Shown: positions 3,519 to 58,785 of the stretch, one piece after another | Position numbering within the stretch: position 1 is the first letter of the stretch | How the letters are laid out: the number at the start of each line of letters is the position of its first letter | Source: an uncultured Ruminococcus sp. | GTDB lineage: Bacteria > Bacillota > Clostridia > Oscillospirales > Ruminococcaceae | Direction of reading: 5' to 3' | Length of the DNA: 64,000 nucleotides | Assembly: GCF_947301925.1 (NCBI RefSeq) | Contig: NZ_CAMYUE010000002.1 | Span: forward strand, 190,131 to 254,130 | Notes under the pieces: generated by a model | Database searches by the model: none | What the model was told of the DNA's origin: nothing | What the model saw: only the letters and a program-made list of their open reading frames with translations | Translations under genes and position numbers: made by a program

Positions 3519-3706
3519 TCCCTGCACGAGCAGCCCCACAGGACTTACAGGCATAATAAGCACAGCCCCCGATCTACAGGTAAAACTGCTTGTATCCGCT
3601 GTGCTGAGTAAAAAAATAAAAAATTTTTAAAAACCTCTTCCATTCTTATAAAAAATAGTGTATAATGTAAGGTGGTAAAAAATTCGCCACAGAAAGGACG
3701 ATACAA

Positions 3707-42109: not shown

Positions 42110-42302
42110 AAAATATTACATCAAATCGAATAGGACAGTTTTCCCCATACATTTAAGTCGGTACTTATAAAGAAGTTTTCCCAAAAGCTAATATGAAAGG
42201 TCTATACAGTAGGCAACAACACAAAGACAGACAGATACTTCATGTATTTTTGAAGTATCTGTCTTTTTCACTATAAAGAGGTCTGATATTTATACTGAGA
42301 AA

Positions 42303-43331
42303 TCAAAACGTTATCGGTGATATTTTTTCCTCTGGCTCATCGGGGAAGGCACGGTATTCACTCGGACTTTTGTCCAGTGCTCGACGGAAAGTTTCTGCAT
42401 AGTAACTCGCACCAGAAAACCCACACGCAAATGCGATCTCTGTAATGGTCATATTTGTATTTTTCAGCAGTGTAATGCTTTGTTTAAGTCGGAATTCATT
42501 GAGGTATTTCATTGGAGAAATAAAAATGTAGCGCTCGAACAGATTACCGCAGGTACGTTTGGAAACGTATCCAGCTATAGCAATGCGATTCAGTGTAAGT
42601 TTTTCGGAGTAATGCTTTTCGATAAAAGCGATCATTGCTTTCATCGAAGTAAGTTGGCTGCATTCGGTATGAGGTTTCTCGTCCGGGCGAATATTTTCAG
42701 TGATTTCGCTCCAGATCAGATTTACCAATCCAATCATAGCGCACTTCTCAGAGTTATCCTGATTATCCTTGAGAACAGAATACTCGATCGGTGCGAATGC
42801 TTTAGGCATAGCCTTGTCAATGTGCCGTTTTCTGATGATTGAAAACCAGTGTAGGATATTCTCATGCCACGTCGTCCCTTTTTGCAGTAGGATATAATCA
42901 AAAGTCGAATTGAGGATTGGCTGAACTGCATTCTTTTCGATATCTTCTGAGATACACAGGATCATCGGATGAAAAATCAGCAGATTATAACAACAGTCGC
43001 GTATATCTTTTAAACGAGCTGAATGAAGTCGCCGTGAGTTGATGAGCAATCCTTCACCCGATCTTACAGTGACAAGCTTTCCGTTTATGTTATAAACCGC
43101 CTCTCTCTCATTGGGAACAATCAGTTCGATATCCTCATGCCAGTGTGTCGGGACTGAAGCATTCGGATAGGCAGAAAATCGACCGCTGAAGAAGCCAATT
43201 GGGATATCGGTATAACTGTATCTGACTGTTTCGCTGCAGTCGCTGTTCACCTCCAGCTCATAACTATAACGTAGTTCCACTGATATCACTTTCCTTTTTG
43301 TTATAGTTCTCTGCAAAATCATGATAGACAT
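42303..43331 (-). CDS. AraC family transcriptional regulator (cupin + double HTH)
   Basis: 342 aa with a C-terminal AraC signature (MTITEIAFACGFSGASYYAETFRRALDKSPSEYR) and an N-terminal cupin-like sensor. Confidence 0.85.
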   Translation of the reverse strand: MSIMILQRTITKRKVISVELRYSYELEVNSDCSETVRYSYTDIPIGFFSGRFSAYPNASVPTHWHEDIELIVPNEREAVYNINGKLVTVRSGEGLLINSRRLHSARLKDIRDCCYNLLIFHPMILCISEDIEKNAVQPILNSTFDYILLQKGTTWHENILHWFSIIRKRHIDKAMPKAFAPIEYSVLKDNQDNSEKCAMIGLVNLIWSEITENIRPDEKPHTECSQLTSMKAMIAFIEKHYSEKLTLNRIAIAGYVSKRTCGNLFERYIFISPMKYLNEFRLKQSITLLKNTNMTITEIAFACGFSGASYYAETFRRALDKSPSEYRAFPDEPEEKISPITF

Positions 43332-43428
43332 CGCACATTTTCTGCGTTATAATGATAACATATAAATGTGCATAAGTCAACCGACTATTATTGACTTATG
43401 CCAATAGATGAATAATAGGGGGATAATT

Positions 43429-44982
43429 ATGAAAAGAGTAATAGCAATTCTTTTATCTCTTACGCTTCTTACATCAATGTCTGCTTGCAGCAACAGTGAA
43501 AACAGCTCGCTATCTACACAGGTAAAGACATCTGAGTCTGTTGAAAACACTGAGCCGATACATCTTACAAATAAGATGACCGAAACAGAGTTAGCCAAAG
43601 TGGATAAACATAGCCTTACGCTGCTTGACGCTCCTGAAGAGACCACAAATACAACAACCGAACAATCGGGGCATACGGTTAGAATTGAGTTCGCTTCAAT
43701 ACCGATTGATAAAATAATCACAGGTCTTGAGGCTGCAAAAGAAGAGCTTACCGACGAAGAATATGGGAAGCTTTATGAAAAATTTGACTCTTACATTGAA
43801 AGTAGTGAAGACTATACATACCCGAAGTATATTTTTGTAGACGATCAGAATATTTTTGATAATGCGCCCTTAATGCCCCCAACCTACGATGACGGAAAGA
43901 TAACTGTGACAGATACAAAATACAACAGTGAAACTGACAGTTATGAAACAACAACAAACACCTATGCTGATATGGACGACTACCTTGATTGGATACGCTG
44001 CAAGTTTAGAGACTGGAACTATCCTGAGGAAGAAATAGAAAAAATAGAAGAAAGAATTCTAATTGCAGACGAAGCATACAGAGATAGTAATTATGAAACG
44101 CTGCCAGAGGGCTCTGTTGTTTATTCTGAATCGGATTATAGCTATATCATCAGCACTGATGAAAACAAAGATTACCGGAATGAATGGGAGTTTGATCGTC
44201 AGGCTGTTGAAGACATCAAGGACAGCATTGATGAAATAGATATTTACGATGAAGAACTTGACAAGGCGTTTGTTGTTCATGTGACACTTCCGCCAGAATA
44301 TGACAACAAAAAAGAATATCCTGTAATCCTGCTCACAGACGGAATATGGCGTTTTGGCAATACTCCTGAGATGAGAAAAGTTATGGAGGACGGAAAAGCA
44401 GCACCTGTGATACTTGTGAGCATATGGTATTCCTACGATGTAGAAGACACGAGTGGAAGTAAGCGCTATAATGATCTTGTGTTAGAACGCAGCAAATCAC
44501 TTGATTTCATAACAGACAACCTGATGCCGTATCTTGGTGAGAACTACAGTATCGACTATAAGAATTCTACGCTCTACGGTCATTCTGATGGTGGTGTCTT
44601 CTCCCACTATGCACTCTTCAACTCTGACCTCTACGAAAATCAGCCATTCGGCAATTACATCATCGGCAGTCCAGCCTTCTGGGGACTCTATTATGATTAT
44701 CCGGATCTCAATCCCGAAGAATATGAGAAGGATTACGGATACTTTGACAGAAATGAAAAGCTCAGTAAAAGCGTGTTCCTATGCGCAGGCTCACAGGAGG
44801 ATCCTGACTATACAGACAGTTACAACGGACATGACACAACGCTTGAAGGCGTTGCAAAGCTGAAGGAACGGCTTGAATCGCATGGCGCCAATCTGACATA
44901 CAAGCTTTACGATTCACATCACTATCAATATGTACCCTCGATGCTTCTTGAATATCTGAAAGCGGAATATCCTGTGCAATAA
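43429..44982 (+). CDS. Secreted lipoprotein with a C-terminal PF00756-type esterase domain (siderophore-esterase/esterase-D-like)
   Basis: Lipobox LLTSMSAC. The C-terminal YPVILLTDG...LYGHSDGG nucleophile elbow resembles the Fes/IroE/BesA-type putative esterase family. The ATG start follows AGGGGGA (codon 8 of the track ORF). Confidence 0.75.
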   Translation: MKRVIAILLSLTLLTSMSACSNSENSSLSTQVKTSESVENTEPIHLTNKMTETELAKVDKHSLTLLDAPEETTNTTTEQSGHTVRIEFASIPIDKIITGLEAAKEELTDEEYGKLYEKFDSYIESSEDYTYPKYIFVDDQNIFDNAPLMPPTYDDGKITVTDTKYNSETDSYETTTNTYADMDDYLDWIRCKFRDWNYPEEEIEKIEERILIADEAYRDSNYETLPEGSVVYSESDYSYIISTDENKDYRNEWEFDRQAVEDIKDSIDEIDIYDEELDKAFVVHVTLPPEYDNKKEYPVILLTDGIWRFGNTPEMRKVMEDGKAAPVILVSIWYSYDVEDTSGSKRYNDLVLERSKSLDFITDNLMPYLGENYSIDYKNSTLYGHSDGGVFSHYALFNSDLYENQPFGNYIIGSPAFWGLYYDYPDLNPEEYEKDYGYFDRNEKLSKSVFLCAGSQEDPDYTDSYNGHDTTLEGVAKLKERLESHGANLTYKLYDSHHYQYVPSMLLEYLKAEYPVQ

Positions 44983-45034
44983 CAGATTGAACAAGCATCA
45001 GGGCATAGTACAGTGCTGATAAAGAAAAAATGTG

Positions 45035-45081
45035 CCATAGTATTTCTAATGAATTTGTCAGAAATACTATGGTAGTTTTTT
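45035..45081. terminator. Bidirectional terminator between the esterase and ECF ATPase genes
   Basis: 13-bp perfect stem CCATAGTATTTCT/AGAAATACTATGG with an A-run before and a T-run after. Confidence 0.85.
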
Positions 45082-45131
45082 ATATTGACAATGAAAATGA
45101 TGGGTAGGAAATTAAACGAGGTATCAATTAA

Positions 45132-46577
45132 TCAATTATCCGCAACACAGCCATTTTCAAGTCTGACAATATGATCGCAGCAGGAAAGAATAAACTCATT
45201 ATCGTGAGTAACAACAATAATTGTCTTGCCTATTTCTTTCAGCTTTTTTAGCTGGTTTGATACCTGTTTCATATGTGCAAGGTCAAGACCGCTGGTGGGT
45301 TCGTCAAAGATTATAACAGGCTTGCTTGAAGCCACCCCCGATGCGATTGCTGTACGCTGTTTCTGTCCGCCCGAAAGCGCCATGGGATGCGTATTGGCAT
45401 ACTCCAAAAGATCAAGCTGTGACAGTATTTCATCAGCTTTTTTTATTTTCTGCTCATCGGTCAGTAACTTATCCGTCATGCTCAGCATGACCTCATCACG
45501 CACGCTCTCTGTAAAAAGCTGGTGGTTCACGTCCTGCATTATCATATAACAAGAATGCAGACGATCTTTCGCTTTTAGCTTTTTGCCGTTCATTATGAGA
45601 GTACCTTTACACTTGCGTTCAAGTCCGCAGATATTTCGTGCGAGGGTGCTTTTGCCTGCGCCGTTGTGACCGATAATCGCAATGATATGATTTGCAGGTA
45701 ATTCGAGCCGAGGGATATTGATACCGTGCTTGCCGTCATTATAGGTAAAACGGAAATCCTCCAGTAACAGAACATCGCCTTGTACGTCTGTATTTTTTTG
45801 CGAACAGTGTATTTCGGGGAGCATCGTAGGACGTATACCCATTTTTTCGGTATCGTCAGCAGTAAGTTTTTTTATCTCTTCGGTAATCAGTTCTTTTGCA
45901 ATTCTGCCGTTTTCAAGTATCAGCATTCTGTCTGCAAGTTCACGCAGAAAATACAGACGATGCTCTGCGATAACTATGGTTTTGCCCTGTGACTTCCAGT
46001 CTGTCAGCACGGCTTTCAGCTTCTCTATCGCCTCGCTGTCAAGATTAGATGACGGTTCGTCAAGTACGATGATATCAGGCGACAGAACATTGATGCCTGC
46101 ACAGGCTATGATTTGCTTTTCTCCGCCCGAAAGCTCAAATATATTGCGATCAAGCAGTTTTTCTATGTGCATGGAAGCTGCTGTTGCAGTTATCGCTTTT
46201 GATATTTCAGCAGGCTCACAGCACTGATTTTCAGCGGCAAATGCGATCTCGTCAGTGGTATTCACATTGAAAAACTGCGAACGAGGATTCTGGAAAACAC
46301 TTCCGACTTTTTTAGCAGTTTCAAATATTGGTGTGTCGGGAACGCTCTTTCCGTCGATCATCACTTCACCATTCAGAGTTCCGCTGTAATAGTGAGGAAT
46401 AAGCCCGTTGATAAGCCTTGTGACCGTTGTTTTTCCGCAGCCTGAGCCGCCGGTCAGAACGATAAACTCGCCATTCTGTATCGTCAGGTCAAGACCGTTG
46501 ATACTTCCTTGTTCAATAGCCCTGCCGTTGGCATCTGTCGAGCTGTATGCAAATGTTACATTCCTGAATTCTATCAT
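45132..46577 (-). CDS. ECF transporter ATPase, fused double NBD (EcfA1-EcfA2)
   Basis: 481 aa with two sets of Walker A (GGSGCGKTT, GHNGAGKST), signature (LSGGEKQ, LSGGQKQR) and Walker B (VLDEPSS, IFDEPTS). Confidence 0.9.
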   Translation of the reverse strand: MIEFRNVTFAYSSTDANGRAIEQGSINGLDLTIQNGEFIVLTGGSGCGKTTVTRLINGLIPHYYSGTLNGEVMIDGKSVPDTPIFETAKKVGSVFQNPRSQFFNVNTTDEIAFAAENQCCEPAEISKAITATAASMHIEKLLDRNIFELSGGEKQIIACAGINVLSPDIIVLDEPSSNLDSEAIEKLKAVLTDWKSQGKTIVIAEHRLYFLRELADRMLILENGRIAKELITEEIKKLTADDTEKMGIRPTMLPEIHCSQKNTDVQGDVLLLEDFRFTYNDGKHGINIPRLELPANHIIAIIGHNGAGKSTLARNICGLERKCKGTLIMNGKKLKAKDRLHSCYMIMQDVNHQLFTESVRDEVMLSMTDKLLTDEQKIKKADEILSQLDLLEYANTHPMALSGGQKQRTAIASGVASSKPVIIFDEPTSGLDLAHMKQVSNQLKKLKEIGKTIIVVTHDNEFILSCCDHIVRLENGCVADN

Positions 46578-46586
46578 ATTCTCACC

Positions 46587-47309
46587 CTAAAATGCAAAGA
46601 ATAAAACGATCATAGCCAGTGTGCCGAACATCAGCAGCCAATCGTACAACCTGATACTGATCTGACAGATATGCGTTCGCTTTCCGCCTGCACACAGTCC
46701 CTTTGTCAGTGAAGCAGCTGAAAGCTCGTCCGCAATACGGACAGTTGACATCATGATCGGTACAAGCACATACTCGATATAAGTGAACGGATTCTTCACG
46801 CTCTGCCCGATCTCACGCATTTTCATGGCATCGTGGACACTACGGTATTCCTCGCTAAGTGTTGGAAAATAACGGAACATCACAGAAAACGGTATCGTGA
46901 TAAAATACGGAACGTGCATCCTGTCCATTGCAGTCATAAACTCGCTGACAGAGGTTGAGCGTACAGTGTACCAGCCCATCATATATCCGGGAACAAACCT
47001 TGATATGATACCACATAATATCATCAGTATCAGATTAGGCGCTCCGCTGATATTGGGGATCACACTGCCTTCACAAAATACAGAAAAAGCAATAAGTACG
47101 ACATAAATAAGTGCGGATTTTATGTGCCTGACTGTCAGAAGAAGCACAAACGGAATTGCTGCACATATCACTCTCAGAATGTATTCCACGCCGGCTGTTT
47201 TTCCGCCCACCATAATAAGACTGATCGCTATCAGCAGACAAAGTTTTGTTCTCGGATCGAGTTTCAGTACGCTTTTGTCCGAAGTTGATGAAAGTCCGAG
47301 TTCCATCAA
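46587..47309 (-). CDS. ECF transporter transmembrane (T) component, CbiQ/EcfT family
   Basis: 240 aa, polytopic. It sits between the S component and the ATPase, and its start overlaps the S-component stop. Confidence 0.8.
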   Translation of the reverse strand: MMELGLSSTSDKSVLKLDPRTKLCLLIAISLIMVGGKTAGVEYILRVICAAIPFVLLLTVRHIKSALIYVVLIAFSVFCEGSVIPNISGAPNLILMILCGIISRFVPGYMMGWYTVRSTSVSEFMTAMDRMHVPYFITIPFSVMFRYFPTLSEEYRSVHDAMKMREIGQSVKNPFTYIEYVLVPIMMSTVRIADELSAASLTKGLCAGGKRTHICQISIRLYDWLLMFGTLAMIVLFFAF

Positions 47310-47890
47310 GCCATACCTGCCTTACGGAAGTGCTTTCTGAGTACCTTTGCGCCAAGCAGACCGCCGATCAGTCCCCCGATGATACACATAGCTATCATAG
47401 TGAAGAACACCCATGTCGGAGTATATCCCGACATTTTATCGACGTATTCCTGACCGTATCCGTCAGCGAGCGAATTGAGATATGATTCACGGAATCCGAA
47501 GAAGAAAGCAATGACCATACCGAGCAGCCATAGACTGAATGTCGAAGAACCGATCACGCACGACTTGATGCTCTGATAATCACCGAGTTTCAGTACGATC
47601 TCTGTCAGCAATCCTGCACCGATACAGAAGATAAAAATCGGATAAGGGTGTCCTGTAATGAACATGAGAATTGCAATGATAACGCTTGTAATTGTGACCA
47701 TTCCGAAATGCTTTATCTTTGAAAAATACAGCATAAGCGGCATTCCTGCAAATATCGGAACAAGCAGCGGCATAAATACCATGAATATCGGGATAAATCC
47801 GATACAAGCGACTGCAAATGTTATCGCAAAATACAGTGCGGTAAAAATACCTACCGTGATAAGATCTTTGACCTCAAATTTCTTTTCCAT
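47306..47890 (-). CDS. ECF transporter S component, MptD/Trep_Strep-like
   Basis: 194 aa with 6 TM helices. N-terminus KDLITVGIFTALYFAITF. Family assignment is from remembered family features and the conserved 5-gene context. Confidence 0.7.
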   Translation of the reverse strand: MEKKFEVKDLITVGIFTALYFAITFAVACIGFIPIFMVFMPLLVPIFAGMPLMLYFSKIKHFGMVTITSVIIAILMFITGHPYPIFIFCIGAGLLTEIVLKLGDYQSIKSCVIGSSTFSLWLLGMVIAFFFGFRESYLNSLADGYGQEYVDKMSGYTPTWVFFTMIAMCIIGGLIGGLLGAKVLRKHFRKAGMA

Positions 47891-47908
47891 AAATATACTC
47901 CTTCAAAC

Positions 47909-49645
47909 TTAATTTTTCCAACCCGTGCTGACTGCACGTTTTGTGACCATGTTATGATAGATACCGCCCATATCCATAAGGCTCTTATGATCGCCCGACT
48001 CGGCTATCTCTCCGTCTTTGATAACCATGATGTTATCGGCATGAGCGATAGTATTGAGCCTGTGTGCGATGACGAGCAATGTCTTACCCTTGCAAAGCTC
48101 GGATATTGCCTGCTGTATGTAGCTTTCATTGTCAGCATCAACGCTTGCAGTCGCCTCGTCAAGAATGACAATGGGCGAATCTTTCAAAATACATCTTGCA
48201 ATTGAAAGCCGCTGTGCCTGACCGCCCGAAAGCGAAGCACCACCCTCGCCGATGACTGTATCAAATCCTTCGGGCAGCTCCATGATGAAATCATAGCAGC
48301 GAGCCTTCTTTGCAGCTTCGATGACTTCTTCACGGCTTGCATCGGGTCTACCGAGCGCGATATTGTTGTAGACCGTATCCTGAAACAGATACACCCTCTG
48401 GAACACCATACTGATATTATCCATAAGTGTTGCAAGCGGTATCTTTCGTATATCCGTACCGCGCAGAAGTATCTCTCCGCTTTTCACGTCCCAGAAGCGT
48501 GTCAGCAAACTTGCAATTGTGGATTTGCCGCCGCCGGACGGACCGACCAGTGCAGTCATTGTACCTTTGCCTGATTTGAATGATATGTCTTTCAGCACGT
48601 CTTTTTCGCCGTAGGCAAATGTGACATTGCGGTATTCTATCTCGGGAGCATTGCTGTTTTTCAGCATTTCTGCTCCGTTGTCAGAAAGCTCCTTTTCAGC
48701 AAACAGTGATTCAATTCTGTCCATACAAGCGTTCATTACCGTCAGCCTTGCAATCTGTCCGTAGAATGACTTCATCGGTACAAACAGATCAAACAGGAAC
48801 AGCAGCATACCGATATAGAAATTTAGTGGCATAGTTCCCGAAAAATAGAGATATGAGGATACTGCAAGGACTATAACGGTTCCGAAAGTGTATATCAGGT
48901 TCACTCCTGTCTGCCACGGTGCATGGTCGAACTCGAAGTCGAGATTGACCTTGCAGTTGAGCTCGAAGCTGTCGGTCAGCTCCTTTGATTTATCGCCCAT
49001 TAGGTTAAAAGTCTTGATGATTCCGATGCCCTCTGTAAAGTCAAGCACCGACTCCGTCAGCTTTTCTGAAGCCTCCTGACGTTCGTCTGAATGATGCAGG
49101 GTACTTTTTTTCATGGCAAAACCAAGCATGAGCATTCCCAATGTTACAATCAGGGAAATAAATCCTAAACGCCAGTCAAAGAAAAACATGAACAGCACCA
49201 TGATTGCCTGTGAAAACAGGTAACTCATCATATCCGCCAATGTCATCATGCAGTTTTCCTCGATGAACACCATATCCGTTGACAACACCGAGCTGATCTT
49301 TCCGATATTGCCCTCCGTAAAATATCCCATAGGCAGACGACGCAGATGCTCACCCAGTTTCATTCGCATATCCGCAAAAATCATATAACCTGCTGCACTT
49401 TGCAGTCTGTCGGCGAAATACTGGAGCAATGCCTGCACAGCAACGCTTGCCACAAGTGCAACAGCTATGTAAACACAATGCGTTTTCGTGACCGTTCCCT
49501 CTATGAATGCCGTAACAACGAAATATGCCAGCATAATAGGAACTTTCATCAGCATCCCTTTCAAAAATGAAAGGAACATAGCACCGTATATTCTGCCTTT
49601 GTATTTTCCCGAAACGCCGAGAATCCGTCCGATAAGTCCTATCAT
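47909..49645 (-). CDS. ABC transporter permease/ATPase, exporter fold (half-transporter B)
   Basis: 578 aa with a 6-TM domain plus an NBD (GPSGGGKST, LSGGQAQR, ILDEATAS). Confidence 0.9.
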   Translation of the reverse strand: MIGLIGRILGVSGKYKGRIYGAMFLSFLKGMLMKVPIMLAYFVVTAFIEGTVTKTHCVYIAVALVASVAVQALLQYFADRLQSAAGYMIFADMRMKLGEHLRRLPMGYFTEGNIGKISSVLSTDMVFIEENCMMTLADMMSYLFSQAIMVLFMFFFDWRLGFISLIVTLGMLMLGFAMKKSTLHHSDERQEASEKLTESVLDFTEGIGIIKTFNLMGDKSKELTDSFELNCKVNLDFEFDHAPWQTGVNLIYTFGTVIVLAVSSYLYFSGTMPLNFYIGMLLFLFDLFVPMKSFYGQIARLTVMNACMDRIESLFAEKELSDNGAEMLKNSNAPEIEYRNVTFAYGEKDVLKDISFKSGKGTMTALVGPSGGGKSTIASLLTRFWDVKSGEILLRGTDIRKIPLATLMDNISMVFQRVYLFQDTVYNNIALGRPDASREEVIEAAKKARCYDFIMELPEGFDTVIGEGGASLSGGQAQRLSIARCILKDSPIVILDEATASVDADNESYIQQAISELCKGKTLLVIAHRLNTIAHADNIMVIKDGEIAESGDHKSLMDMGGIYHNMVTKRAVSTGWKN

Positions 49646-51393
49646 GCTCTCACCTCATTTCCGATAGTCCAGCTTGCTCTTGCTTCGCTGCTGTTCCATA
49701 ACTTCTGATACTCCACACAGCTTTGCAGGAGCTTTTCGTGAGTGTCGGCGGCGATGATATTTCCGTCATTCATAACGCATATCTTGTCGGCGTTCACGAT
49801 AGTCTGTAAACGGTGAGCAATGACAAGAACGGTCTTGCCCTTTATTATCTCAGCAATAGCAGAGTTCATTTTCTCCTCGTTCTCAGGATCAATGAAAGCT
49901 GTTGCTTCGTCAAGCACGATAACAGGAGCATCTTTCAGTATCGCCCTTGCAAGAGATATTCGCTGACGTTCACCGCCTGACAGCATCTTTCCGCCGTCGC
50001 CTGCCATAGTGTCGATGCCTTTTGGAAGACGTTTGAGGAACTCTCCACATTGTGCTTTTTCTGCTGCCGCCATCACTTCTTCACGACTCGCATCAGGCTT
50101 GCCGATGAGGATATTCTCGTACAGCGTTGTGTTGAACAAAAACTGTTCCTGCGATACATAGGAGATATGATCGTTGAGTGCTTCGATGCTCATCTCGGTA
50201 ATATCCTGACCACCCAGTGTGATACGTCCGCTGCTGAGGTCGTAGTAGTGAACAAGCAGCTTTGCCAGTGTGGACTTACCGCTGCCGGATTCTCCCACAA
50301 GAGCTGTGAGCGTCCCCTCACCGAGTTCAAGGGATACACCGTGCAGGACTTCTTTTTCCTTGTAAGCAAAACGTACATCTTCAAATTTTATGATATGTGA
50401 ATTACCGATAAACGAATTATCATTAGTTTTTAAAGGTTCACTATCCATTGCTTTTTCAATTTCATCTATCTTATAGCCAAGCTGTGGGAATTTGCCTGCA
50501 AAGCTCAGTGCTTTCAGCAGCGGTACACCAATCGACAGCGACAGGCAGAACACAAGTACCAGATTGGCAAGTGTTGATGTTCCATTGATAACAAACAGCG
50601 TTCCGACAGGCAGCATGACAAGAGCCGTACATGGAAGTATCGCACTGTAAAGAGCCATCCAGCCCCAGCAAGCTTTATACCACGCAAGGGTAAAGTCACG
50701 ATAGCTTCGGATATCGGTTGCATAGCGCTGATAGGATTCACCGTCCCGTCCAAACACCTTGACGACTTCCATACCGTTGACATACTCGATAATGGTTGCA
50801 TTCATCTTAGCTGATGCGGCGTAGTAGGCGTTCATTCGTTTCATACCCGTGCGGAACATCATGCCCATTGCAAACAATCCGAGCGGCAGAGAGCAGAGAG
50901 ACAGAAGTGCCAGTTTCCAGTCTGCGAAGAACATACATATAATCGCCATCAATGCCATTGCAAGGTTGGAGATGCCTTCGGGAATTGCGTGTGCCAGCAG
51001 AAGTTCCACCTGATCTATATCATCGGTAAACAACTTTTTTATTCTGCCGTTACCCATATCCTGTATTGTGCCGAGCGGCTGACGCTCCAGCTTTTTTTGC
51101 AATGAAATACGGATATTTTTTAGTGTGTTGTATGCGGAAATGTGCGAGTATTTCAATCCCAGTACATATAAGATAGCGTAGGCTAACTCACATACAAAAA
51201 TAACAGCTATATGCACTGCATAATAGCCTGCGGATAATGATTCGCCGCCAATCAGCGGCTTGATAATGCGGTACACCATAAAAAACGGCACAGCGGAGGC
51301 GATCAGTCCTGCGAACATGACCGCCAGAGCCGCATAGGTATACTTGATGTAGTCGCCCATATAGGGCTTTATCTTGTTAAACACTGTTTTCAT
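49642..51393 (-). CDS. ABC transporter permease/ATPase, exporter fold (half-transporter A)
   Basis: 583 aa with a 6-TM domain plus an NBD (GESGSGKST, LSGGERQR, VLDEATAF). It overlaps both neighbours, suggesting coupled translation. Confidence 0.9.
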   Translation of the reverse strand: MKTVFNKIKPYMGDYIKYTYAALAVMFAGLIASAVPFFMVYRIIKPLIGGESLSAGYYAVHIAVIFVCELAYAILYVLGLKYSHISAYNTLKNIRISLQKKLERQPLGTIQDMGNGRIKKLFTDDIDQVELLLAHAIPEGISNLAMALMAIICMFFADWKLALLSLCSLPLGLFAMGMMFRTGMKRMNAYYAASAKMNATIIEYVNGMEVVKVFGRDGESYQRYATDIRSYRDFTLAWYKACWGWMALYSAILPCTALVMLPVGTLFVINGTSTLANLVLVFCLSLSIGVPLLKALSFAGKFPQLGYKIDEIEKAMDSEPLKTNDNSFIGNSHIIKFEDVRFAYKEKEVLHGVSLELGEGTLTALVGESGSGKSTLAKLLVHYYDLSSGRITLGGQDITEMSIEALNDHISYVSQEQFLFNTTLYENILIGKPDASREEVMAAAEKAQCGEFLKRLPKGIDTMAGDGGKMLSGGERQRISLARAILKDAPVIVLDEATAFIDPENEEKMNSAIAEIIKGKTVLVIAHRLQTIVNADKICVMNDGNIIAADTHEKLLQSCVEYQKLWNSSEARASWTIGNEVRA

Positions 51394-52012
51394 CGCCTTT
51401 CTTTAGCATTATGACCTCCTGCCAGTTGAAGAAACGACAGACGATACGGCAATGCTCCTCGATCTGCTTCCATGACATATCGTGAATGATCGGTTCGCAT
51501 ACGCAAGTCCAAAAAGACGAGATCAGCACATGAAATTCTTCTCTGGTAACTTCTGCTTGAGCAAGTCCTCTTTTGTACGCCTCTGCGTAGAACTGCTCAT
51601 AGGCATAACTCATTTTCGTGACATATTCGTGGTTGAAATTCTCATAGCGCGTGCCGGCAGCCTTGTCTATCAGCAAAGAGACAGTCTCACGGTTATTGTA
51701 GAGAAGCTTGAAAAGAGGTATCATGGATTCATACGACATCACCCATGAATCATATATCTCATCGTCCGAAAGTACCGAAAAATCCAAATCTGAACGGCTT
51801 TCAACGAAATGATTCAGCTCATCTGCTATATCCTCCACAACAGCGCTGAACAGGTCTTCCTTGCCCTTATATCGCTTGTAGACTGCGCCCGTTGTGATGT
51901 CGGCGTTCTCGCAAATTGTTTTCAGTTCTGCTTTCAGATAGCCGTGCTTTATGAATTCTGTCTGCGCACTGGCACGAAGTCGTGGGTCGATACTTTTATC
52001 AGGTATTGCCAT
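51377..52012 (-). CDS. TetR/AcrR family transcriptional regulator
   Basis: 211 aa with an N-terminal TetR HTH (TICENADITTGAVYKRYKGKEDLF). Confidence 0.88.
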   Translation of the reverse strand: MAIPDKSIDPRLRASAQTEFIKHGYLKAELKTICENADITTGAVYKRYKGKEDLFSAVVEDIADELNHFVESRSDLDFSVLSDDEIYDSWVMSYESMIPLFKLLYNNRETVSLLIDKAAGTRYENFNHEYVTKMSYAYEQFYAEAYKRGLAQAEVTREEFHVLISSFWTCVCEPIIHDMSWKQIEEHCRIVCRFFNWQEVIMLKKGDENSV

Positions 52013-52034
52013 TTTATCCCTCCTACGAAAATTT

Positions 52035-52048
52035 GATTATCAATAATC
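52035..52048. promoter_or_regulatory. Palindromic candidate operator upstream of tetR
   Basis: GATTAT-CA-ATAATC (6-2-6 palindrome) lies about 22 nt upstream of the tetR ATG, next to its RBS. Confidence 0.4.
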
Positions 52049-52352
52049 CACTTATCATTATAGCATATGCTAACTACGATGTCAAGGGGTTATTCATATG
52101 ATTTGTATGAACAAACAAAAAACGACGGTGCGTTGATTTGAATGCATCGCCTGTATCGCTAACGCAGTCAAGGATTTTGTGAATAAGCGTATGGTACTGC
52201 AAAAAAACTGAGAGTATGTTCTTTAAACGGTCAATCACGATGAAAAAATGAGAGAGATAATAAATAAAGGCTGAATTTGTGCGCAATGCATATTGACCAC
52301 CTCCTCAAAAAATCGAACGTTTGTGCAATCGAACAAAGTTTCTTGAAATCTC

Positions 52353-52381
52353 TTGACAGAACTAATGTTTCGCGATATTAT
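52353..52381 (+). promoter_or_regulatory. Strong sigma-A promoter with no downstream ORF
   Basis: TTGACA (52353-58), a 17-nt spacer, then TATTAT (52376-81). Confidence 0.65.
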
Positions 52382-52387
52382 GATAAT

Positions 52388-52900
52388 GTCCCTTAATGGG
52401 AGAGTAGCTTGAAAATCGAATATCAACACATCAGTGTGCAGCAAGACCAGTGCCGGCAAAACCGACAAGCCGCGAGCTTCCGTACGCCACGACCTCGAAA
52501 GAGCGAGCGATAAATACGTGAAGGCGGTAGGAGAGACTTAGCGAGTCGAGTCAAGGATGACCAACAGAACTCAGCTGAGTGCCATGGGAATACACGTTTA
52601 AGGATTGTGGACTCCCCGCCGCTCCTATAATGGCAATGACAGCCGGCTTGCGCGCCCATCCGCACGTGCGGCTCTGATTCCGTAAGGGCAGAGAGACAAG
52701 GAGCTATGTGAGAGTTGAGGACGACTCTCGGCTGATGTGTTCCCGGCTTCGGAGGGTGCAGGCGTATGCCTGTAGGAGAATATCAGAAGCCTCGGAATGA
52801 GGAAAACGTCATGGCACAGCGCCATGATAAGGTACCTCCGCGGGGGTACAAGGCTATCAAATTGATAGTCAGCATTTCAAGGGGCAAACTATGCCCTTTT
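52388..52900 (+). ncRNA. Candidate large structured noncoding RNA (about 510 nt, unclassified)
   Basis: It is bounded by the promoter above and an intrinsic terminator. There is no + strand ORF of 60 aa or more. The G+C-rich core is dense in short perfect hairpins, including GAAA, GTAA and GCTT loops. Confidence 0.4.
52879..52900 (+). terminator. Intrinsic terminator 1 of the noncoding unit
   Basis: AAGGGGCA/TGCCCTTT stem with a 5-nt loop and a T-run. Confidence 0.6.
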
Positions 52901-52972
52901 ACAGATGAAATGCGGTTTTGAATTTGGAAAAATGCATGGCACGGATAGTTATGCCCAAATATAAGGTTAAGA

Positions 52973-53016
52973 GAAGGCAGAGTAACGTCAAAGGCGTCAC
53001 TCTGCCTTTTTATTTT
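52973..53016 (+). terminator. Intrinsic terminator 2
   Basis: Perfect 10-bp stem AAGGCAGAGT/ACTCTGCCTT followed by TTTTATTTT. Confidence 0.8.
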
Positions 53017-53033
53017 GTCAAAAATTAAATATA

Positions 53034-53077
53034 AAGCGCTCAGCGGTTCGTCACGGACTGCTGTGCGCTTTTTTGTT
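53034..53077 (+). terminator. Intrinsic terminator 3 (imperfect)
   Basis: AGCGCTCAGCGG/CTGCTGTGCGCT stem (2 mismatches) followed by T6GTTT. Confidence 0.5.
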
Positions 53078-53252
53078 TGCACATAAGCTACAAAAATCAG
53101 TGGCATCTCTTGTGCAAAAGCTCCGAACAAATGGTTAAAACAAAATTTTATTTTGTAAAAACGCCATTTTTCTGCTTAGTAATATATGGAGGGTGGTGAT
53201 AACAATGAGCAATTCAATCGCAAACTGAACTCAAATCGAAAGGAGAAATCGA

Positions 53253-54500
53253 ATGAAAAAACTTGAAACTGTAAGCTGTGAAACACTTATGACAACGCCG
53301 TTGAAGCCAATGGAATTTCTCGTAGACGATCTGATAGCGCAGGGACTGTACATCCTCGCTGGCAATCAGAAGGTCGGCAAGTCTTGGCTCGCACTCGACA
53401 TCTGCCTCAGCATTGCAAAGGGAGAAACGGTGCTCGGACGCGAAACAACTCAGGGCACGGCACTCTACCTCTGCCTTGAGGACAGCTACGTCCGACTGCA
53501 AAATCGCCTCTACGAGCTGACCGATGAGCCGACCGACAAGCTCTATTTTTCTCTGCTTGCCAATACGATAGGCGACGGACTTGAAGAACAGATACGCGAT
53601 TTCAAAAATGAACACACTGACCTGAAATTCGTCGCCATCGACACCTTGCAGAAGGTCAGGAGCGGCGACGAGCAGACCTACGCCTCCGACTATCGGGAGA
53701 TGAGTGTGCTGAAAAATCTCGCCGCCGAGCTCGGTATCACAATACTGCTTGTACATCACCTCCGCAAGTGCAAGGACAGTGACCCCTTCAAAATGATATC
53801 GGGAACGAGCGGTATTACAGGCTGCGCGGACGGCAGTTTCGTACTTAAACGCGAGGACAGGTCTCAGCCGTATGCCACTCTGAGCGTGGTTGGCAGAGAC
53901 ATCGAGGGCGGCGACATCGCTCTGAAAATGATCGGCAACCGCTGGACTGTGACCGAGCCTGTGAAGCAAACTCCGCCCGACAACTTTGCATTCGCCGTCC
54001 ACGACTTCATGGTCGAGAGAGGTCAACTGAAAGTGACTGCGACCGAGCTTGCCAATGAACTCAACGAGCACTTCAGACTGATTGTCCCGAACAATATGAT
54101 AACCAAGAAGCTCGTTCAGCACGGCATTGAACTGCAAGGCTATGGCGTCCGCTTCGTGATTAAGCACAGCCACGGAAAGCGTTGGCTGGAGCTGACCTAC
54201 GACCGTTCGGGTGACAGCGGTGACGGCAGAACGATGTGGGCATCGCCGAGCTGTCCTGCCGCTACCCGAGAGCATGAAAAGCTCTTAGATTCGTCATCTG
54301 AGTTGGGTGACAGCTTGACTGAGGGTGACAGCAAAACCGCTTCGGGTGACAGCTCGGAGTACGCGATAGTCAACGGCAGACCTGTCCCGATAACGCGCAT
54401 GAACATCAACGATGTCATCAACCAATGCGCCGAGCGTCTGAGGGAAAGGATAGCAGCCGAGCGCGGTATAGTCGTCCCCGAATTCAAGTTCGCGCCGTAA
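53253..54500 (+). CDS. RepA-like RecA-superfamily ATPase (AAA_25 type) of mobile elements
   Basis: 415 aa with Walker A AGNQKVGKSW, Walker B-like FVAIDTLQK and LLVHHLRK, typical of RepA/DnaB-like element ATPases. Confidence 0.8.
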   Translation: MKKLETVSCETLMTTPLKPMEFLVDDLIAQGLYILAGNQKVGKSWLALDICLSIAKGETVLGRETTQGTALYLCLEDSYVRLQNRLYELTDEPTDKLYFSLLANTIGDGLEEQIRDFKNEHTDLKFVAIDTLQKVRSGDEQTYASDYREMSVLKNLAAELGITILLVHHLRKCKDSDPFKMISGTSGITGCADGSFVLKREDRSQPYATLSVVGRDIEGGDIALKMIGNRWTVTEPVKQTPPDNFAFAVHDFMVERGQLKVTATELANELNEHFRLIVPNNMITKKLVQHGIELQGYGVRFVIKHSHGKRWLELTYDRSGDSGDGRTMWASPSCPAATREHEKLLDSSSELGDSLTEGDSKTASGDSSEYAIVNGRPVPITRMNINDVINQCAERLRERIAAERGIVVPEFKFAP

Positions 54501-54957
54501 GCCGATATTTGCCGCGAGAGTACCGAGGTCGAGTGAGTATCCCACCTGCGGCGATAGAAGCGATTGTCGCGCAACGTGGAGCGAGTGTGTGGATGTATCC
54601 GCGAAGGAAAGAAGCTGCGGCGAGCGACAAAAAGTCTTCCCTTTTGGGAAGGCAAGCATCGCAGACGGCATTCCGCCTGCCGCTGAAAACGGGAGGACCC
54701 GAGCCCCTTTGTGGTTTGCAGGAAAAAGGCTGGCGTCAAAGCGCCTGCCGATTCACCTCGGAGGGCAGTGCCCGCCGAAATATCGGAACTTGCAGGAATT
54801 GAAAATTGGGGGCAAAATGAGAAATGGAGAAAAAGTGTGGGGTCAAAATTTGAAAAGAGCCATGATAAGGGCTATATTTCGGAAGGAGTGACTGGCGTCA
54901 GAGCGTATATTTACGATAATTAAGAATTGGAAATCGTGTGACATGAAAGGAGCTTGT

Positions 54958-55119
54958 ATGCAAGAGAAAAAACAGGAAGAAATACTTTGCGTTGACAAGA
55001 CAATGATCATTGACGGTCAGAAGTTTGAGATCACTCTCGTGTTCAAGTCTCCCGACAATGAGCACGAAACGGTCGAGGAGAAAATAAGACACTTGATAAA
55101 CGGCGACAAAATAAAGTGA
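54958..55119 (+). CDS. TnpW-like small protein (53 aa)
   Basis: Not in the track because it is under 60 aa. GGAG lies 5 nt before the ATG. Translation: MQEKKQEEILCVDKTMIIDGQKFEITLVFKSPDNEHETVEEKIRHLINGDKIK. Size, position just upstream of the recombinase and the ...EKI..LI... tail resemble TnpW-family ORFs. Confidence 0.5.
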   Translation: MQEKKQEEILCVDKTMIIDGQKFEITLVFKSPDNEHETVEEKIRHLINGDKIK

Positions 55120-55217: not shown

Positions 55218-56855
55218 ATGAGAGAATCAAATACGGAACAGATAACAGCACTGTATTGCCGCCTGAGTCAAGAGGATATGCGTGCGGGAGAGTCGCTGTC
55301 AATTGAAAATCAAAGACTAATGTTGAAGGACTACGCCGACAAAAACGGCTTCCGCAATTGTCAATATTACATCGACGACGGATACAGCGGCACCGATAAT
55401 ACCCGTCCAGAGTATGTTCATATGCTTGATGATGTGCAAAACGGATTGGTCGGAACAGTTATTGTCAAAGACCAGTCGCGGCTTGGACGTGACCATCTTG
55501 AAACCGATAGACTAATGGAGTTGGTGTTCCCTGCATATGATGTTCGCTTCATTGCGGTAACAGACGGAGTTGATTCCGCCAACGGCATCAATGAAATGTC
55601 AGGCATACGTAACCTGTTCAATGATATGTACGCTCGCGATACAAGTAAGAAAATCAGAGCTGTGCAGCGAGCGAAAGGTGAGCGAGGAGAGCGCGTCGGA
55701 ACGACAACTCCCTACGGTTACATGAAGGACGAAAACAAGCATCTGATACCTAATCCCGAAACATCTCCGATAGTAAAACGCATATTTGAAATGAGTGCAG
55801 ATGGAAAAGGCGTCCGCAAGATATGCGACATACTTACAGCCGAGGAAGTGCTTACTCCAAGTGCGTATTCGGCTCATAAATCGGGCAAGCAGAAAACAAG
55901 CTCACCGTACCGCTGGTCGCTGAAAACGGTCAGAGAGATGTTAAAGAATCGAATCTACTGCGGCGATACCATCAACTTCAGCACCTACACTAAATCATAC
56001 AAGCTGAAAAAGACGCTCAAGAACGAGCCCGAAAAAATGCTTATCTTCGAGAACACACACGAAGCTATAATCAGCCGAAAGTTGTTCGACATCGTGCAGA
56101 AACACTACGAAGGAAGAAAGAAGTCGGACAAGTTCGGTGAAACTGATAAGTATGCAGGCTACCTTTACTGCGCGGAGTGCGGCTCAAAGCTCTATCTTCA
56201 CCGAGCGAGAACGCTTGACCCAAAGAAGAACAATTATATGTGCGGAGGCTATCAGAGTCGTGTCACAGACTGCACTGCGCACTACATCAGGGAAAAGGTA
56301 CTCGACGATATTGTGCTGCGCTATCTGAGACAGGTCGTAAGCTATGCGAAAGACAAGTCCGACGAGTTCTACTCAATGGCAATGGCGAATGGTGAAGCTG
56401 AAGCGAAAAAGCAGTTCAAGGAGAACGAAAAGCTCCGCAGTGAATATGAAACAAAAATCAGTCAACTCGACAATGCGATACAGCTTCTCTTCATGGACAG
56501 GTCAAACGGAAAGATCACGGATGAGCGCTACGATATACTCTCTGCAAACTTCGAGAAGGAGCAGTCAGAGATAAAAGTCAAGCTCAGCACTCTCGATTCT
56601 CAGCTGGACAAGATGAAAGTACGCGAGAAACGTGTCAGGGAGTTCATCAACAACGCCAAGCAGTACACAGAGATACATAGGCTCACTCCCGAGATACTGA
56701 AGTCTTTCATCGGGCGCATTGAAGTCTACGAAAAGGCAGTCAAGCGCTCGAGAACCTGTGGAAACCGCATCGTCATCTACTTCACATTTTCAGCTGATAA
56801 GGCGATAGCTATCGACAGAGTGATTACTGAAAATGGCGATATACTGATACTTTAA
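55218..56855 (+). CDS. Large serine recombinase
   Basis: 545 aa with an N-terminal resolvase domain (ALYCRLSQED with the catalytic Ser, DRLGRD), a recombinase domain, a zinc ribbon (CAECGSKLY...C..C) and a C-terminal coiled coil. Confidence 0.92.
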   Translation: MRESNTEQITALYCRLSQEDMRAGESLSIENQRLMLKDYADKNGFRNCQYYIDDGYSGTDNTRPEYVHMLDDVQNGLVGTVIVKDQSRLGRDHLETDRLMELVFPAYDVRFIAVTDGVDSANGINEMSGIRNLFNDMYARDTSKKIRAVQRAKGERGERVGTTTPYGYMKDENKHLIPNPETSPIVKRIFEMSADGKGVRKICDILTAEEVLTPSAYSAHKSGKQKTSSPYRWSLKTVREMLKNRIYCGDTINFSTYTKSYKLKKTLKNEPEKMLIFENTHEAIISRKLFDIVQKHYEGRKKSDKFGETDKYAGYLYCAECGSKLYLHRARTLDPKKNNYMCGGYQSRVTDCTAHYIREKVLDDIVLRYLRQVVSYAKDKSDEFYSMAMANGEAEAKKQFKENEKLRSEYETKISQLDNAIQLLFMDRSNGKITDERYDILSANFEKEQSEIKVKLSTLDSQLDKMKVREKRVREFINNAKQYTEIHRLTPEILKSFIGRIEVYEKAVKRSRTCGNRIVIYFTFSADKAIAIDRVITENGDILIL

Positions 56856-57159: not shown

Positions 57160-58785
57160 TCAGTCTGTTGCCTGGAATACTGCTCTTACGAACGTATAGA
57201 GATGTGAGTGTATGGAGTCATCACCGTGGTGACCGTTCTGTACAACGTGCCATACATGAGGTACGCCGTTCTTGTTGAAGTTATTGTGATAGCCCTCGGG
57301 AGTATTCAGACCAACTACGTCGTCCTGAGTACCGCCTGTTACCATTACCAGATAAGGAGTCTCCTCCTCGCTGTTCCACTTCCATGCGCCTGAAGCACCG
57401 GGTGCGGGACAGATAGCGCCCACATAACCGAACTTGTCGCCGTACTTCATACCGATCTGGAGAGACTCGCGTCCGCCCATTGAGAAGCCTGTAACGGCTG
57501 TATTCTCTCTGCCTGTCTTGACGCTGTACTTCTCCTCAATGTGAGGCATGAGGCTGTCAACGATATCGTCAACGAAGTTGTCGTAGCCCTCGTTGGAGCC
57601 TGGATCTGCAAAGCCTGTAGCATCGTTCATCGTAGCGCTGGTGAATACGAAGGGTACTACTACGATCATATCCTTGGCCTCGCCCGAAGCGATAGCGTTG
57701 CCCACGATCTGCTTGGTGTACATCTGGCCGTTGCCCTTGGTTATCATTCGGTCCTCATTCTCGAAGAAGCCGTGGAGAACATAGAGTACGGGGTATTCCT
57801 TGCTCTCGTCATAGCCTGCGGGAAGGAGTATATTGTAAGGCTTGTTCTTGTTTGCCTTCTTGGAGTAGTAGGTCTCCTTCTTGATAGTACCGTACTGTAC
57901 TCCGCCCTTCTCCATATGAGAATCATTGGGCTCGTTGTTTACCAGCATATTCTGTACGATCTCTGCATATTCCTCCATGGTGTACTTGCGCTGACCGGGA
58001 ACGATGACCGGCTCTACTACGGGGAATTCTGTAATCTTGCCCGCTACGAACTGCATGATGAGCACAGCGTCGTTGAGCTCGTACACTCCGTTGCTGTCGG
58101 CGTCTGCGGCCTTCAGCCACTTCTTGTCGGTGATCTCCTGGATAAGTCCCTTACGAGCCTGAACGATATCCAGCGAGTCGATTGTTCCGTCATAGTTAAT
58201 GTCGCCCTTGTTCATCTTTACCGGCGGAGAGGGTTCGCCTATTTCTGTGCCGACGTTAGCGCCAACTACTTCATCGATGTAGAAGCTGCAGGTGGTGCCT
58301 TCCTCAGACTCGATATAGAGCTGCACGCTTTCCGCGCCTGCGGGAATGGTGAACTCCTTGTTCTCAAGATGCGCCCACTGCCCCTTTTCGGCAGTTACCT
58401 CAGCTATCTTCGGATAAGAGGTAGTGCTTCCGTCGCTGTACTGGAGAGTCAGGTAGAAGGTAACGGGAGAGGTGGTGTCCTCCGTCATTACATAAGCGCT
58501 GAAAGCATAGTCCTGACCCGCCCTGAAGTCAGTACCGAGGCTCATTGTTGCGCCGTTCCATGATGACTCTCTGCCGCTTGTGAAAAGTGAGCCTTCACCC
58601 GAACGTGAGATGCCTGTGACCGCCTTTACAGAAGCGGAACCGCGGCCGCTCCACTGTTCCTTTCCATCCTCGAAGGTACTGTGAAGCAGGTAATCGGTAT
58701 CTGCCGCCGAAACAGGTACCGATGCGACAGCTGAGAGGGATAACGCTGCCGCTGTGATGAGTGGTAATATTTTTCTCATTTCCAA
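57160..58785 (-). CDS. Cellulosomal esterase: CBM-like module + dockerin + PF00756/CE1-type esterase (feruloyl/acetyl-xylan esterase-like)
   Basis: 541 aa with a signal peptide, a beta-sandwich module of about 170 aa, a dockerin pair (DINYDGTIDSLDIV / DADSNGVYELNDAV) and an esterase with YPVLYVLHG and GFSMGG. Confidence 0.85.
   Translation of the reverse strand: MEMRKILPLITAAALSLSAVASVPVSAADTDYLLHSTFEDGKEQWSGRGSASVKAVTGISRSGEGSLFTSGRESSWNGATMSLGTDFRAGQDYAFSAYVMTEDTTSPVTFYLTLQYSDGSTTSYPKIAEVTAEKGQWAHLENKEFTIPAGAESVQLYIESEEGTTCSFYIDEVVGANVGTEIGEPSPPVKMNKGDINYDGTIDSLDIVQARKGLIQEITDKKWLKAADADSNGVYELNDAVLIMQFVAGKITEFPVVEPVIVPGQRKYTMEEYAEIVQNMLVNNEPNDSHMEKGGVQYGTIKKETYYSKKANKNKPYNILLPAGYDESKEYPVLYVLHGFFENEDRMITKGNGQMYTKQIVGNAIASGEAKDMIVVVPFVFTSATMNDATGFADPGSNEGYDNFVDDIVDSLMPHIEEKYSVKTGRENTAVTGFSMGGRESLQIGMKYGDKFGYVGAICPAPGASGAWKWNSEEETPYLVMVTGGTQDDVVGLNTPEGYHNNFNKNGVPHVWHVVQNGHHGDDSIHSHLYTFVRAVFQATD

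Follow-up and report, generated by a model that had tools for sequence, protein, structure and literature searches.

In the genome of an uncultured Ruminococcus sp. (NCBI RefSeq assembly GCF_947301925.1, contig NZ_CAMYUE010000002.1), we analysed a stretch of 64,000 nucleotides (nt; positions 190,131 to 254,130 of the forward strand), hereafter called the window, which carries an integrative element with a replication ATPase gene of the AAA_25 type (rep) and a large serine recombinase gene. Directly upstream of rep, this element very probably encodes a large structured non-coding RNA, made from the + strand. The RNA falls outside any Rfam 15 family and, judged from its sequence, forms a new one. 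With middling confidence, we propose that it is a greatly expanded 5' leader or attenuator of the block that follows it in Ruminococcus integrative elements, consisting of rep, a probable replication origin (ori), a small open reading frame (ORF) called orf58 and the recombinase gene. For a structured RNA, one window alone would be merely suggestive; the case goes beyond chance because promoter hexamers, terminators and base pairs are kept across ~19 independent homologues. The central claim of the original prediction, which had been made from the window's sequence alone and proposed a discrete promoter-to-terminator structured RNA at this site, is upheld by covariation, frame-breaking insertions and deletions (indels), an asymmetry of G-U pairs between the strands and the conserved promoter and terminators.

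The same locus is present in a metagenome-assembled genome of R. flavefaciens (L001), in which identity to the window is 97% for the unit, 95% on the ABC transporter/TetR side and 87% on the recombinase side. A copy of ~78-85% identity is found on a Logan contig (L002), beside an AAA_25 protein that is 79% identical. Scanning genome contigs with the AAA_25 protein gave one locus only, and an exact-protein look-up with the AAA_25 protein of the window returned no record. A metagenome scan with the 19-mer CAGAAGCCTCGGAATGAGG yielded 21 loci, ~17 of which have the unit; all metagenome copies were required to contain this 19-mer exactly, and the invariance of that stretch is thus imposed by the search. 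Distinct near-full-length sequences number 18, with identities of 74-98%, and the distribution so far is narrow, namely integrative elements of rumen-type Ruminococcus.

The transcription signals proposed in the original prediction are borne out, as is a G+C-rich core set in A+T-rich flanks (G+C of 0.52-0.58 over 52400-52900 vs 0.35-0.39 in the flanks). A near-consensus sigma-70 promoter (Table 1) has its -35 TTGACA and its -10 TATTAT or TATGAT kept across homologues, mostly with a preceding TG, whereas its spacer and surroundings vary; transcription would start near 52388. Three + strand terminators follow in succession, of which the first (T1) is weak and the other two (T2 and T3) have stems of 14-19 bp. 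The variants in the upper stem of T2 preserve pairing in every clade, and in the T3 stem of L002 a C-G pair has passed through U-G to U-A with pairing retained. The RNA is predicted to measure ~515 nt to T1 and 630-690 nt to T2 or T3. With promoter and intrinsic terminators conserved on the same strand, the unit has, at the sequence level, the attributes of an independent transcription unit. Two palindromic sequences lie upstream of the promoter: the imperfect palindrome at the left edge of the conserved module may act as an operator, and the near-palindrome close to the -35 hexamer could likewise bind a protein. The motifs TTTGTGCAA and TCGAAC reappear around the rep-operon promoters of four related elements (L006, L037, L055 and L056). 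No tRNA, tmRNA, iterons or tandem repeats were found.

In agreement with the original prediction, the 1.24-kb gap between tetR and the AAA_25 gene (52012-53253) contains no + strand ORF of 60 amino acids (aa) or more, the longest measuring 51 aa. Indels of 1, 2, 7 and 58-60 nt among the homologues break every reading frame, the longest + strand open frames (51-101 codons) lie at differing places and phases between homologues, and variable columns are spread evenly across the three codon phases; neither an intact ORF nor codon-periodic substitution was seen. The - strand ORFs of 66-115 aa, which arise because the + strand is purine-rich, are not conserved and are broken by the same indels. A 51-aa ORF with a Shine-Dalgarno sequence (52766-52921) was considered and rejected, as its start codon is lost or its frame shifted in several homologues. 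On these sequence grounds, we regard the RNA unit as not protein-coding.

Folding of 52388-52905 gives a minimum free energy (MFE) z-score of -3.3 for the + strand and -2.2 for the - strand, and of -6.0 once the fold is extended to T2. The consensus fold (RNAalifold on a MAFFT alignment) comprises 142 pairs in 23 helices and is near-identical to the single-sequence MFE fold. Standard pairs fill 99.2% of the 2554 alignment cells, counted on the same alignment from which the fold was derived, in which mean column identity is 88%. Two-sided changes affect 7 pairs and 22 cells, numbers equalled by 3 of 500 and 0 of 500 shuffles, respectively, whereas controls with slid partners give 0-3 two-sided pairs and are 35-39% paired. 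The 262 G-U cells set the strands apart, with 99.2% of cells paired on the + strand vs 89.3% on the - strand. Furthermore, variable columns are rarer at paired (39/272) than at unpaired positions (47/185; Fisher exact p = 0.003). Because of the mean column identity of 88%, most pairs never vary, and structural support is moderate since 88% of columns are nearly invariant.

Among the helices that do vary, the long-range helix 52437-55/~52640-60 alternates between C-G and U-A (at pair 67/339, 12 sequences have CG and 4 have UA), and pair 69/337 of the long-range helices is GU, GC or AU. The other long-range helix, 52426-35/52731-40, is invariant across the alignment, so that covariation gives no support either way. 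In helix 18 two neighbouring pairs swap AU/GC to GC/AU between clades (GAGAG/CUCUC vs GAAGG/CCUUC), in helix 20 a G-C pair is replaced by A-U in L002 and L024 (CAGAC/GUCUG) with G-U variants elsewhere, and in helix 22 a C-G pair becomes U-A in four sequences from two clades (GUACCUCC/GGGGGUAC vs GUGUCCC/GGGGAUAC), next to one-sided changes from A-U to G-U and from U-G to C-G. The 7-nt insertion of one clade is located in the internal loop of hairpin 52469-52531, the tip of which carries an invariant GNRA tetraloop. Near the 5' end, the motif at 52409-52422 occurs in every full-length copy of type A with an exact match to the pattern; it is also found at 3361-74 of L006 and at 2703-16 (-) of L028, each time before a different RNA body, with ~0.02 chance matches expected in the loci.

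Most of the hairpins listed in the original prediction (CTC-GAAA-GAG, CCGC-ACGT-GCGG, CC-GTAA-GG, CAGGC-N4-GCCTG and TCATGGC-N5-GCCATGA) are present in both the sequence and the consensus fold. CCG-GCTT-CGG is invariant, but the consensus fold instead pairs GGCUUC with GAAGCC. CTATC-N5-GATAG is found in the sequence and in MFE folds but not in the consensus fold, and in the clade of L015 and L002 this hairpin (52852-70) is replaced by a 9-bp hairpin of other sequence (GAACCGUCA...UGAUGGUUC), as read directly. A long-range helix that RNAalifold draws between GAAUAUC (52417-23) and GAUAGUC (52864-70) was discarded, its support being weaker than that for the local hairpin 52852-70. The long-range pair suggested earlier between CCCCGC (52614-19) and GCGGGG (52840-45) was rejected as well: the first side varies (CCCCAC, CCUUCC, CCAUGC) and the second is unchanged, so that there is no co-change, and GCGGGG is part of a local covarying hairpin.

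A cmscan search with all 4227 Rfam 15 models, as the original prediction had called for, gave no match at gathering thresholds in the whole window and 15 homologous loci. At E <= 10, region 52000-53300 contains no ROOL, GOLLD, OLE, HEARO, raiA, group I/II intron or riboswitch, and the suggested likeness to the ROOL/GOLLD class therefore does not extend to membership. The only matches entirely inside the core (52388-52870), sR10 (13.6 bits) and MEG8_1 (13.1 bits), are far under gathering; a SNORA27 match on the - strand (17.2 bits) merely clips the 3' end of the core, and the remaining matches sit on T1-T3 and reflect generic terminator shape. The sole ctRNA match, on T2, is a chance one (14.7 bits vs a gathering score of 50). 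Comparing the unit with plasmid and phage collections by blastn gave no match, two conserved stretches, used as exact patterns, had no occurrence in viral contigs, and the literature searched holds no description of this RNA.

The genomic context of the RNA was determined for every locus with downstream sequence available. In all of these, the RNA runs in the same direction as what directly follows it, which is the AAA_25 gene in the window, L001, L002, L015/L027 and L031, and a gene for a 591-aa protein, the relatives of which are DUF927, in L017, L014, L021 and L030. In L016 and L022 the ori-like block, orf58 and the serine recombinase follow without a rep gene. The recombinase is of the DUF4368 large serine type, and a tyrosine integrase in L030. 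The RNA, which had been called an orphan, is not one: it heads the replication/recombinase block, and in its nearest relatives no other promoter fits after T3. In L001 the rep ATG follows the T3 U-run after a mere 65 nt, a gap that is taken up by a Shine-Dalgarno sequence and a 7-codon mini-ORF and leaves no room for a promoter. A perfect Shine-Dalgarno sequence and a mini-ORF of 6-8 codons come directly after T3 in every clade (also at 3952-3984 of L001 and 6683-6725 of L017), the peptide itself not being conserved (MSNSIAN, MNLPYA, MLTSGTPP). The RNA thereby has the predicted placement of a leader, co-oriented and directly upstream without an intervening promoter, with the window itself having an additional 100-nt insertion that contains another TTGTGCAA...CGAACAAA motif, might act as a promoter and is missing from L001 and every other homologue.

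More distant elements, with AAA_25 proteins of 52-58% identity, have other content at the RNA position. In L007 and L035 it is a divergent DUF6076 gene and in L038 a sigma-70 region-4 protein, while L006, L037, L055 and L056 have a TTGACA-17-TATAAT promoter with the TTTGTGCAA and TCGAAC motifs. The latter promoter is followed by a conserved leader of ~190 nt and then by the motif CTTGACAATTGAAT, which is the same 14-nt motif as at 52409-22 of the window. The terminator of this short leader aligns with T3 of the window (E = 0.002 in a 1.1-kb search). What stands behind CTTGACAATTGAAT differs: L056 has the rep Shine-Dalgarno sequence there at once, L037 and L055 have a body of ~200 nt, and L006 has a G+C-rich block of 420 nt. 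The L006 block was rejected as a structured relative, as only a 19-nt 5' motif is common and it folds no better than shuffles (z = -0.74), which limits demonstrated structure to the window-type RNA; Rfam searches with this block and with the L055 leader gave nothing meaningful. DUF927 relatives at <=79% identity have no RNA.

It is this common architecture, consisting of a regulated promoter, a terminated leader, a Shine-Dalgarno sequence, rep, ori, orf58 and recombinase, that leads us to read the RNA of the window as an expanded leader. Following this proposal, the strong promoter, flanked by operator-like palindromes, would fire into the RNA and nearly all transcripts would end at T1-T3. A stable folded RNA would then accumulate while the replication and recombinase genes stay almost silent, their expression depending solely on read-through, whether leaky or regulated. 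The conserved fold could set or sense the termination decision, by binding of a protein or RNA polymerase or by sensing a signal, or could alternatively act in trans on sister elements as a copy-control or immunity RNA. Long structured leaders and termination-controlling RNA elements are documented on Gram-positive mobile elements (PMC13401043, PMC8191782).

Several observations weigh against the proposed leader function. No antiterminator pairing was found between the core and the 5' arms of T1, T2 and T3, duplex energies being within 1.4 standard deviations of those of shuffled arms. A simple consensus scan of the leader found no conserved antisense promoter, only weak 9/12 matches on the - strand that differ between clades. 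By analogy, the 14-19 bp stems of T2 and T3 would be expected less at a regulated attenuator than behind a free-standing RNA gene, as a firm stop to transcription, and a fold of ~500 nt far exceeds the needs of known attenuators. The synteny comes from a closely related set (74-98% identity) and partly reflects common descent; homologue diversity is under-sampled and biased because the exact 19-mer was required; and the covariation is modest, with few independent compensatory events because the sequences are so similar.

On account of the missing antiterminator pairing and conserved antisense promoter and of the long-stem terminators, a strong rival to the leader function, which we consider possible, is a free-standing and abundantly expressed large RNA that acts in trans in the manner of ROOL and GOLLD, for instance as scaffold, decoy or in defence or anti-defence, with a function unrelated to rep and with terminators that insulate its neighbours. 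The near-consensus promoter fits such an RNA well, and so do the three terminators, two of which, with stems of >=14 bp where 7-11 bp is usual, belong to a class that on pLS20 withstands processive antitermination and signals where an operon ends (PMC10325885). Its large size, multi-domain fold, invariant GNRA loops and optional domain are likewise in line with this. The module of operators, promoter, RNA, T1-T3 and Shine-Dalgarno sequence is moreover kept intact while both neighbours are exchanged, cargo on the left and AAA_25 or DUF927 on the right. To the left of 52277, the cargo varies by clade: TetR with ABC/ECF transporters in the window (42300-52012) and L001, a 1608-aa DEAD+UvrD helicase in L017, L014 and L020, FRG in L002, and HTH with DUF2971 in L034. 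This side looks like a cargo-exchange hotspot, comparable to those of phage satellites, and the RNA adjoins this hotspot, which includes defence-like genes. A free-standing RNA is harder to reconcile with its constant co-orientation, abutting the Shine-Dalgarno sequence of the rep/recombinase block without a promoter in between in L001-type loci, with the T3 and promoter motifs that it has in common with the short rep leaders of related elements, and with its absence from phage, plasmid and viral-contig collections.

A rather doubtful further reading holds that the RNA represents a new class of large (0.5-0.6 kb) multi-domain RNAs of satellite-like rumen Ruminococcus elements, in which the folded product would itself be the effector that decides on replication and excision. 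It could do so as a trans-acting immunity or copy-control RNA, as a ribonucleoprotein scaffold or as an RNA-polymerase-binding element, and specificity would differ between elements with the body that each has behind the common 5' motif (types A, B and C). When the RNA was compared with the remainder of the island, for identical as well as complementary stretches, only one 12-mer came up, GCCATGATAAGG, which recurs at 54859; chance alone would give ~1.4 such matches, and other clades have not kept it.

Conservation might also stem from recent spread only, the fold being a by-product of G+C content and the RNA, if made at all, a mere spacer with terminators. The unit being closer to L001 than are the flanking ABC and TetR genes (97% vs 95%) is compatible with this, as are the many pairs that never vary and the shuffle-like fold of the L006 block at the same place. 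We nevertheless consider it improbable, as pairing is retained where paired positions vary, double changes exceed those of the shuffled and slid controls, substitutions avoid paired columns, hairpins are replaced by different hairpins, and the promoter hexamers stay constant while the spacer drifts. Adjacency to the replication gene of a mobile element and the many hairpins could point to an element working at the DNA level, either as folded single-stranded DNA or as a protein-binding array (an origin, a single-strand initiation site or single-stranded DNA promoter, a transfer or attachment site). Such an element is very unlikely, since only one of the strands tolerates the G-U (in DNA G-T) cells, the region is enclosed by a double-stranded promoter of canonical type and by intrinsic terminators, iterons and tandem repeats are absent and a better origin candidate lies at 54500-54940. 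Finally, a decayed protein-coding gene can be set aside: L002 has a gene-caller ORF of 92-113 aa here, but compared with the window it depends on three frame changes and on a stop codon having been lost, neither codon periodicity nor a conserved frame is found, and a chimeric six-frame protein query gave 0 matches, although this query was poorly designed, its matching segments being too short for the database size.

Among known systems, the functionally nearest are found in Gram-positive conjugation operons, in satellite phage P4 and in pT181 and Inc18 plasmids. The first comprise the 456-nt leader of plasmid pLS20, containing the "zipper" attenuator cATT, and conAn2, the antitermination RNA of conjugation operons (PMC13401043, PMC8191782). 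Like these, the RNA described here is a long RNA (260-600 nt) of a Firmicute mobile element just after the main regulated promoter and upstream of terminators and the core operon, and the action in cis on termination that they exert is the one we propose. However, conAn2 follows the conAn1 gene, whereas no conAn1 gene precedes our RNA and, with a predicted start ~7 nt past the -10 hexamer, no gene lies between it and its promoter. In cATT an upstream segment is complementary to the 5' arm of the terminator, and no such zipper complementarity was found here. The terminators of the window are also long-stemmed, a class resistant to conAn (PMC10325885). The downstream genes serve conjugation on pLS20 and replication and recombination here, there is no sequence similarity, and the conAn2 regions are poorly conserved, in contrast to the strong conservation with covariation of the window RNA.

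In satellite phage P4, a constitutive promoter fires into a leader with premature transcript ends. The CI RNA, a stable immunity factor of ~70 nt derived from that leader, pairs with repeated targets in the same leader, resulting in premature termination of the replication (alpha) operon, and P4-like elements carry variable cargo hotspots. Our element resembles P4 in being integrated and satellite-like, with a replication gene of the primase/helicase type and a leader with, as predicted here, premature termination. It differs in its host, that of P4 being proteobacterial, in the size of the RNA, in that no such target repeats were found and in the absence of sequence similarity. Plasmids pT181 and pIP501/pAMbeta1 (Inc18) have rep leaders of 100-350 nt that are attenuated by an antisense counter-transcript. 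A rep gene behind a transcribed leader with an intrinsic terminator, and dependent on read-through, is what we likewise predict for the window, but the counter-transcript that these plasmids require lacks a counterpart in the form of a conserved - strand promoter in our simple consensus scan. Of the pLS20/conAn2, P4 CI and pT181/Inc18 systems, the RNA has the defining features, as far as these could be tested, of none. ColE1 RNA II is a structured replication primer of ~550 nt that is made from a strong promoter and runs into the origin without prior termination; size, structure, promoter strength and location in a replication region are alike, but three terminators and the 1.2-kb rep gene separate our RNA from the probable origin. 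ROOL, GOLLD, OLE, HEARO and raiA are similar in length (0.5-0.6 kb), multi-domain build, GNRA loops and optional domains, and ROOL, GOLLD and HEARO also occur on mobile DNA, ROOL in the rumen. The window RNA differs from all five by the lack of a covariance-model match, a much narrower distribution and a fixed position as rep/recombinase leader.

To our knowledge, bacterial structured RNAs of more than 400 nt without assigned function are few, and each of them has opened new biology. The present one is placed at the control point of the replication and excision genes of elements that carry cargo, including defence-like genes, in a major rumen fibre degrader, and its defined promoter, defined terminators and well-supported fold make it directly testable. 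Should it govern read-through or immunity, RNA-based life-cycle control of mobile elements, of which P4 CI RNA, plasmid counter-transcripts and the pLS20 leader are the known examples, would be extended to serine- and tyrosine-recombinase elements of Clostridia, by an RNA several times larger than any known attenuator. Were it merely an insulated leader, it would still be a new RNA family suited to Rfam.

Table 1. Features of the RNA unit and its surroundings. Positions are those of the window unless a locus is named.
Feature	Positions	Strand	Remarks
tetR	51377-52012	-	left neighbour of the RNA unit
Left edge of conserved module	52277-52292		imperfect palindrome TGTGC-N5-GCA(C/T)A; homology begins sharply here (18-homologue alignment)
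Operator-like near-palindrome	52320-52337		TTTGTGCAATCGAACAAA; upstream of -35; kept in all homologues
Sigma-70 promoter	TTGACA 52353-58; TATTAT 52376-81	+	17-nt spacer; consensus match 11/12
Structured RNA core (very probable)	52388-52870	+	multi-domain fold, long-range closing helices
5' motif	52409-52422	+	TTGAAAATCGAATA (consensus TTGANAATYGAATA); ~+20 of the RNA
5' strands of long-range closing helices	52426-52445	+	partners 52731-52740 and ~52640-52660
Hairpin CCUC-GAAA-GAGC	52493-52504	+	invariant; GNRA tetraloop; tip of long hairpin 52469-52531
Optional-domain site	52603-52620 (~52609)	+	extra 58-60 nt in 12/18 homologues; absent from window
Hairpin GAGAG...CUCUC	52710-52729	+	helix 18
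Hairpin CAGGC-GUAU-GCCUG	52759-52772	+	helix 20
Hairpin GUACCUCC-GC-GGGGGUAC	52832-52849	+	helix 22
Hairpin GGCUAUC-N5-GAUAGUC	52852-52870	+	present in single-sequence MFE folds
T1, weak terminator-like hairpin	52881-52904	+	5-8 bp stem + U4; -5 to -10 kcal/mol
T2, long-stem intrinsic terminator	52972-53016	+	14-19 bp stem; -21 to -30 kcal/mol
T3, long-stem intrinsic terminator	53033-53078	+	18 bp stem; -26 to -30.5 kcal/mol
Insertion of ~100 nt	53089-53190	+	window only; TTGTGCAA...CGAACAAA motif at 53110-53131
Strong Shine-Dalgarno and 7-codon mini-ORF	53188-53228	+	MSNSIAN
AAA_25/DnaB_C-like replication ATPase gene (rep)	53253-54500	+	Pfam and PHROGs
Conserved non-coding G-rich block	54500-54940		repeated TGGGG(N)CAAAAT units at ~54806-54850
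orf58, 58-aa ORF	54943-55119	+	tblastn in 7 loci; no family match
Large serine recombinase	55218-56855	+	Resolvase, Recombinase, Zn_ribbon_recom, DUF4368
Short leader (~190 nt) with terminator	L055 1290-1500; L037 2355-2565; L006 3145-3355; L056 1300-1500		related elements

Downstream of rep, the G-rich block is probably the replication origin. Blocks of this type were found by nhmmer beside the rep gene even in the distant elements L006, L037, L038 and L030, and the block has no Rfam match. In all serine-recombinase loci, orf58 lies between the ori-like block and the recombinase (48-98% identity), and its product could be a directionality factor or a regulator. Just right of the recombinase, a gene for a dockerin-bearing CBM_4_9 esterase (57160-58785, - strand) marks a cellulosomal Ruminococcus host and is the probable right end of the element. 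On the other side, the promoter of the tetR/transporter operon (52085-52057, - strand) is a perfect 12/12 match with an extended -10 TG and is directed away from the RNA unit.

In L028, the main unit has a second and shorter RNA-like unit (2716-2480, - strand) upstream of it, which begins with the same 5' motif and includes a copy of the optional domain (59 nt), suggesting that RNA-bearing elements have recombined with one another. On one contig, L031, the set of ori-like block, orf58 and serine recombinase is present twice, in inverted orientation (3637-6024 and 8707-6343), so that two elements appear to lie back to back. The DUF927 relatives without the RNA (L043, at 70-3063 (-), L046-L051, L053 and L054) have a gene of ~995 aa with PF05183 (eukaryote-type RNA-dependent RNA polymerase / YonO-like two-barrel polymerase), placed divergently upstream of the DUF927 replication gene.

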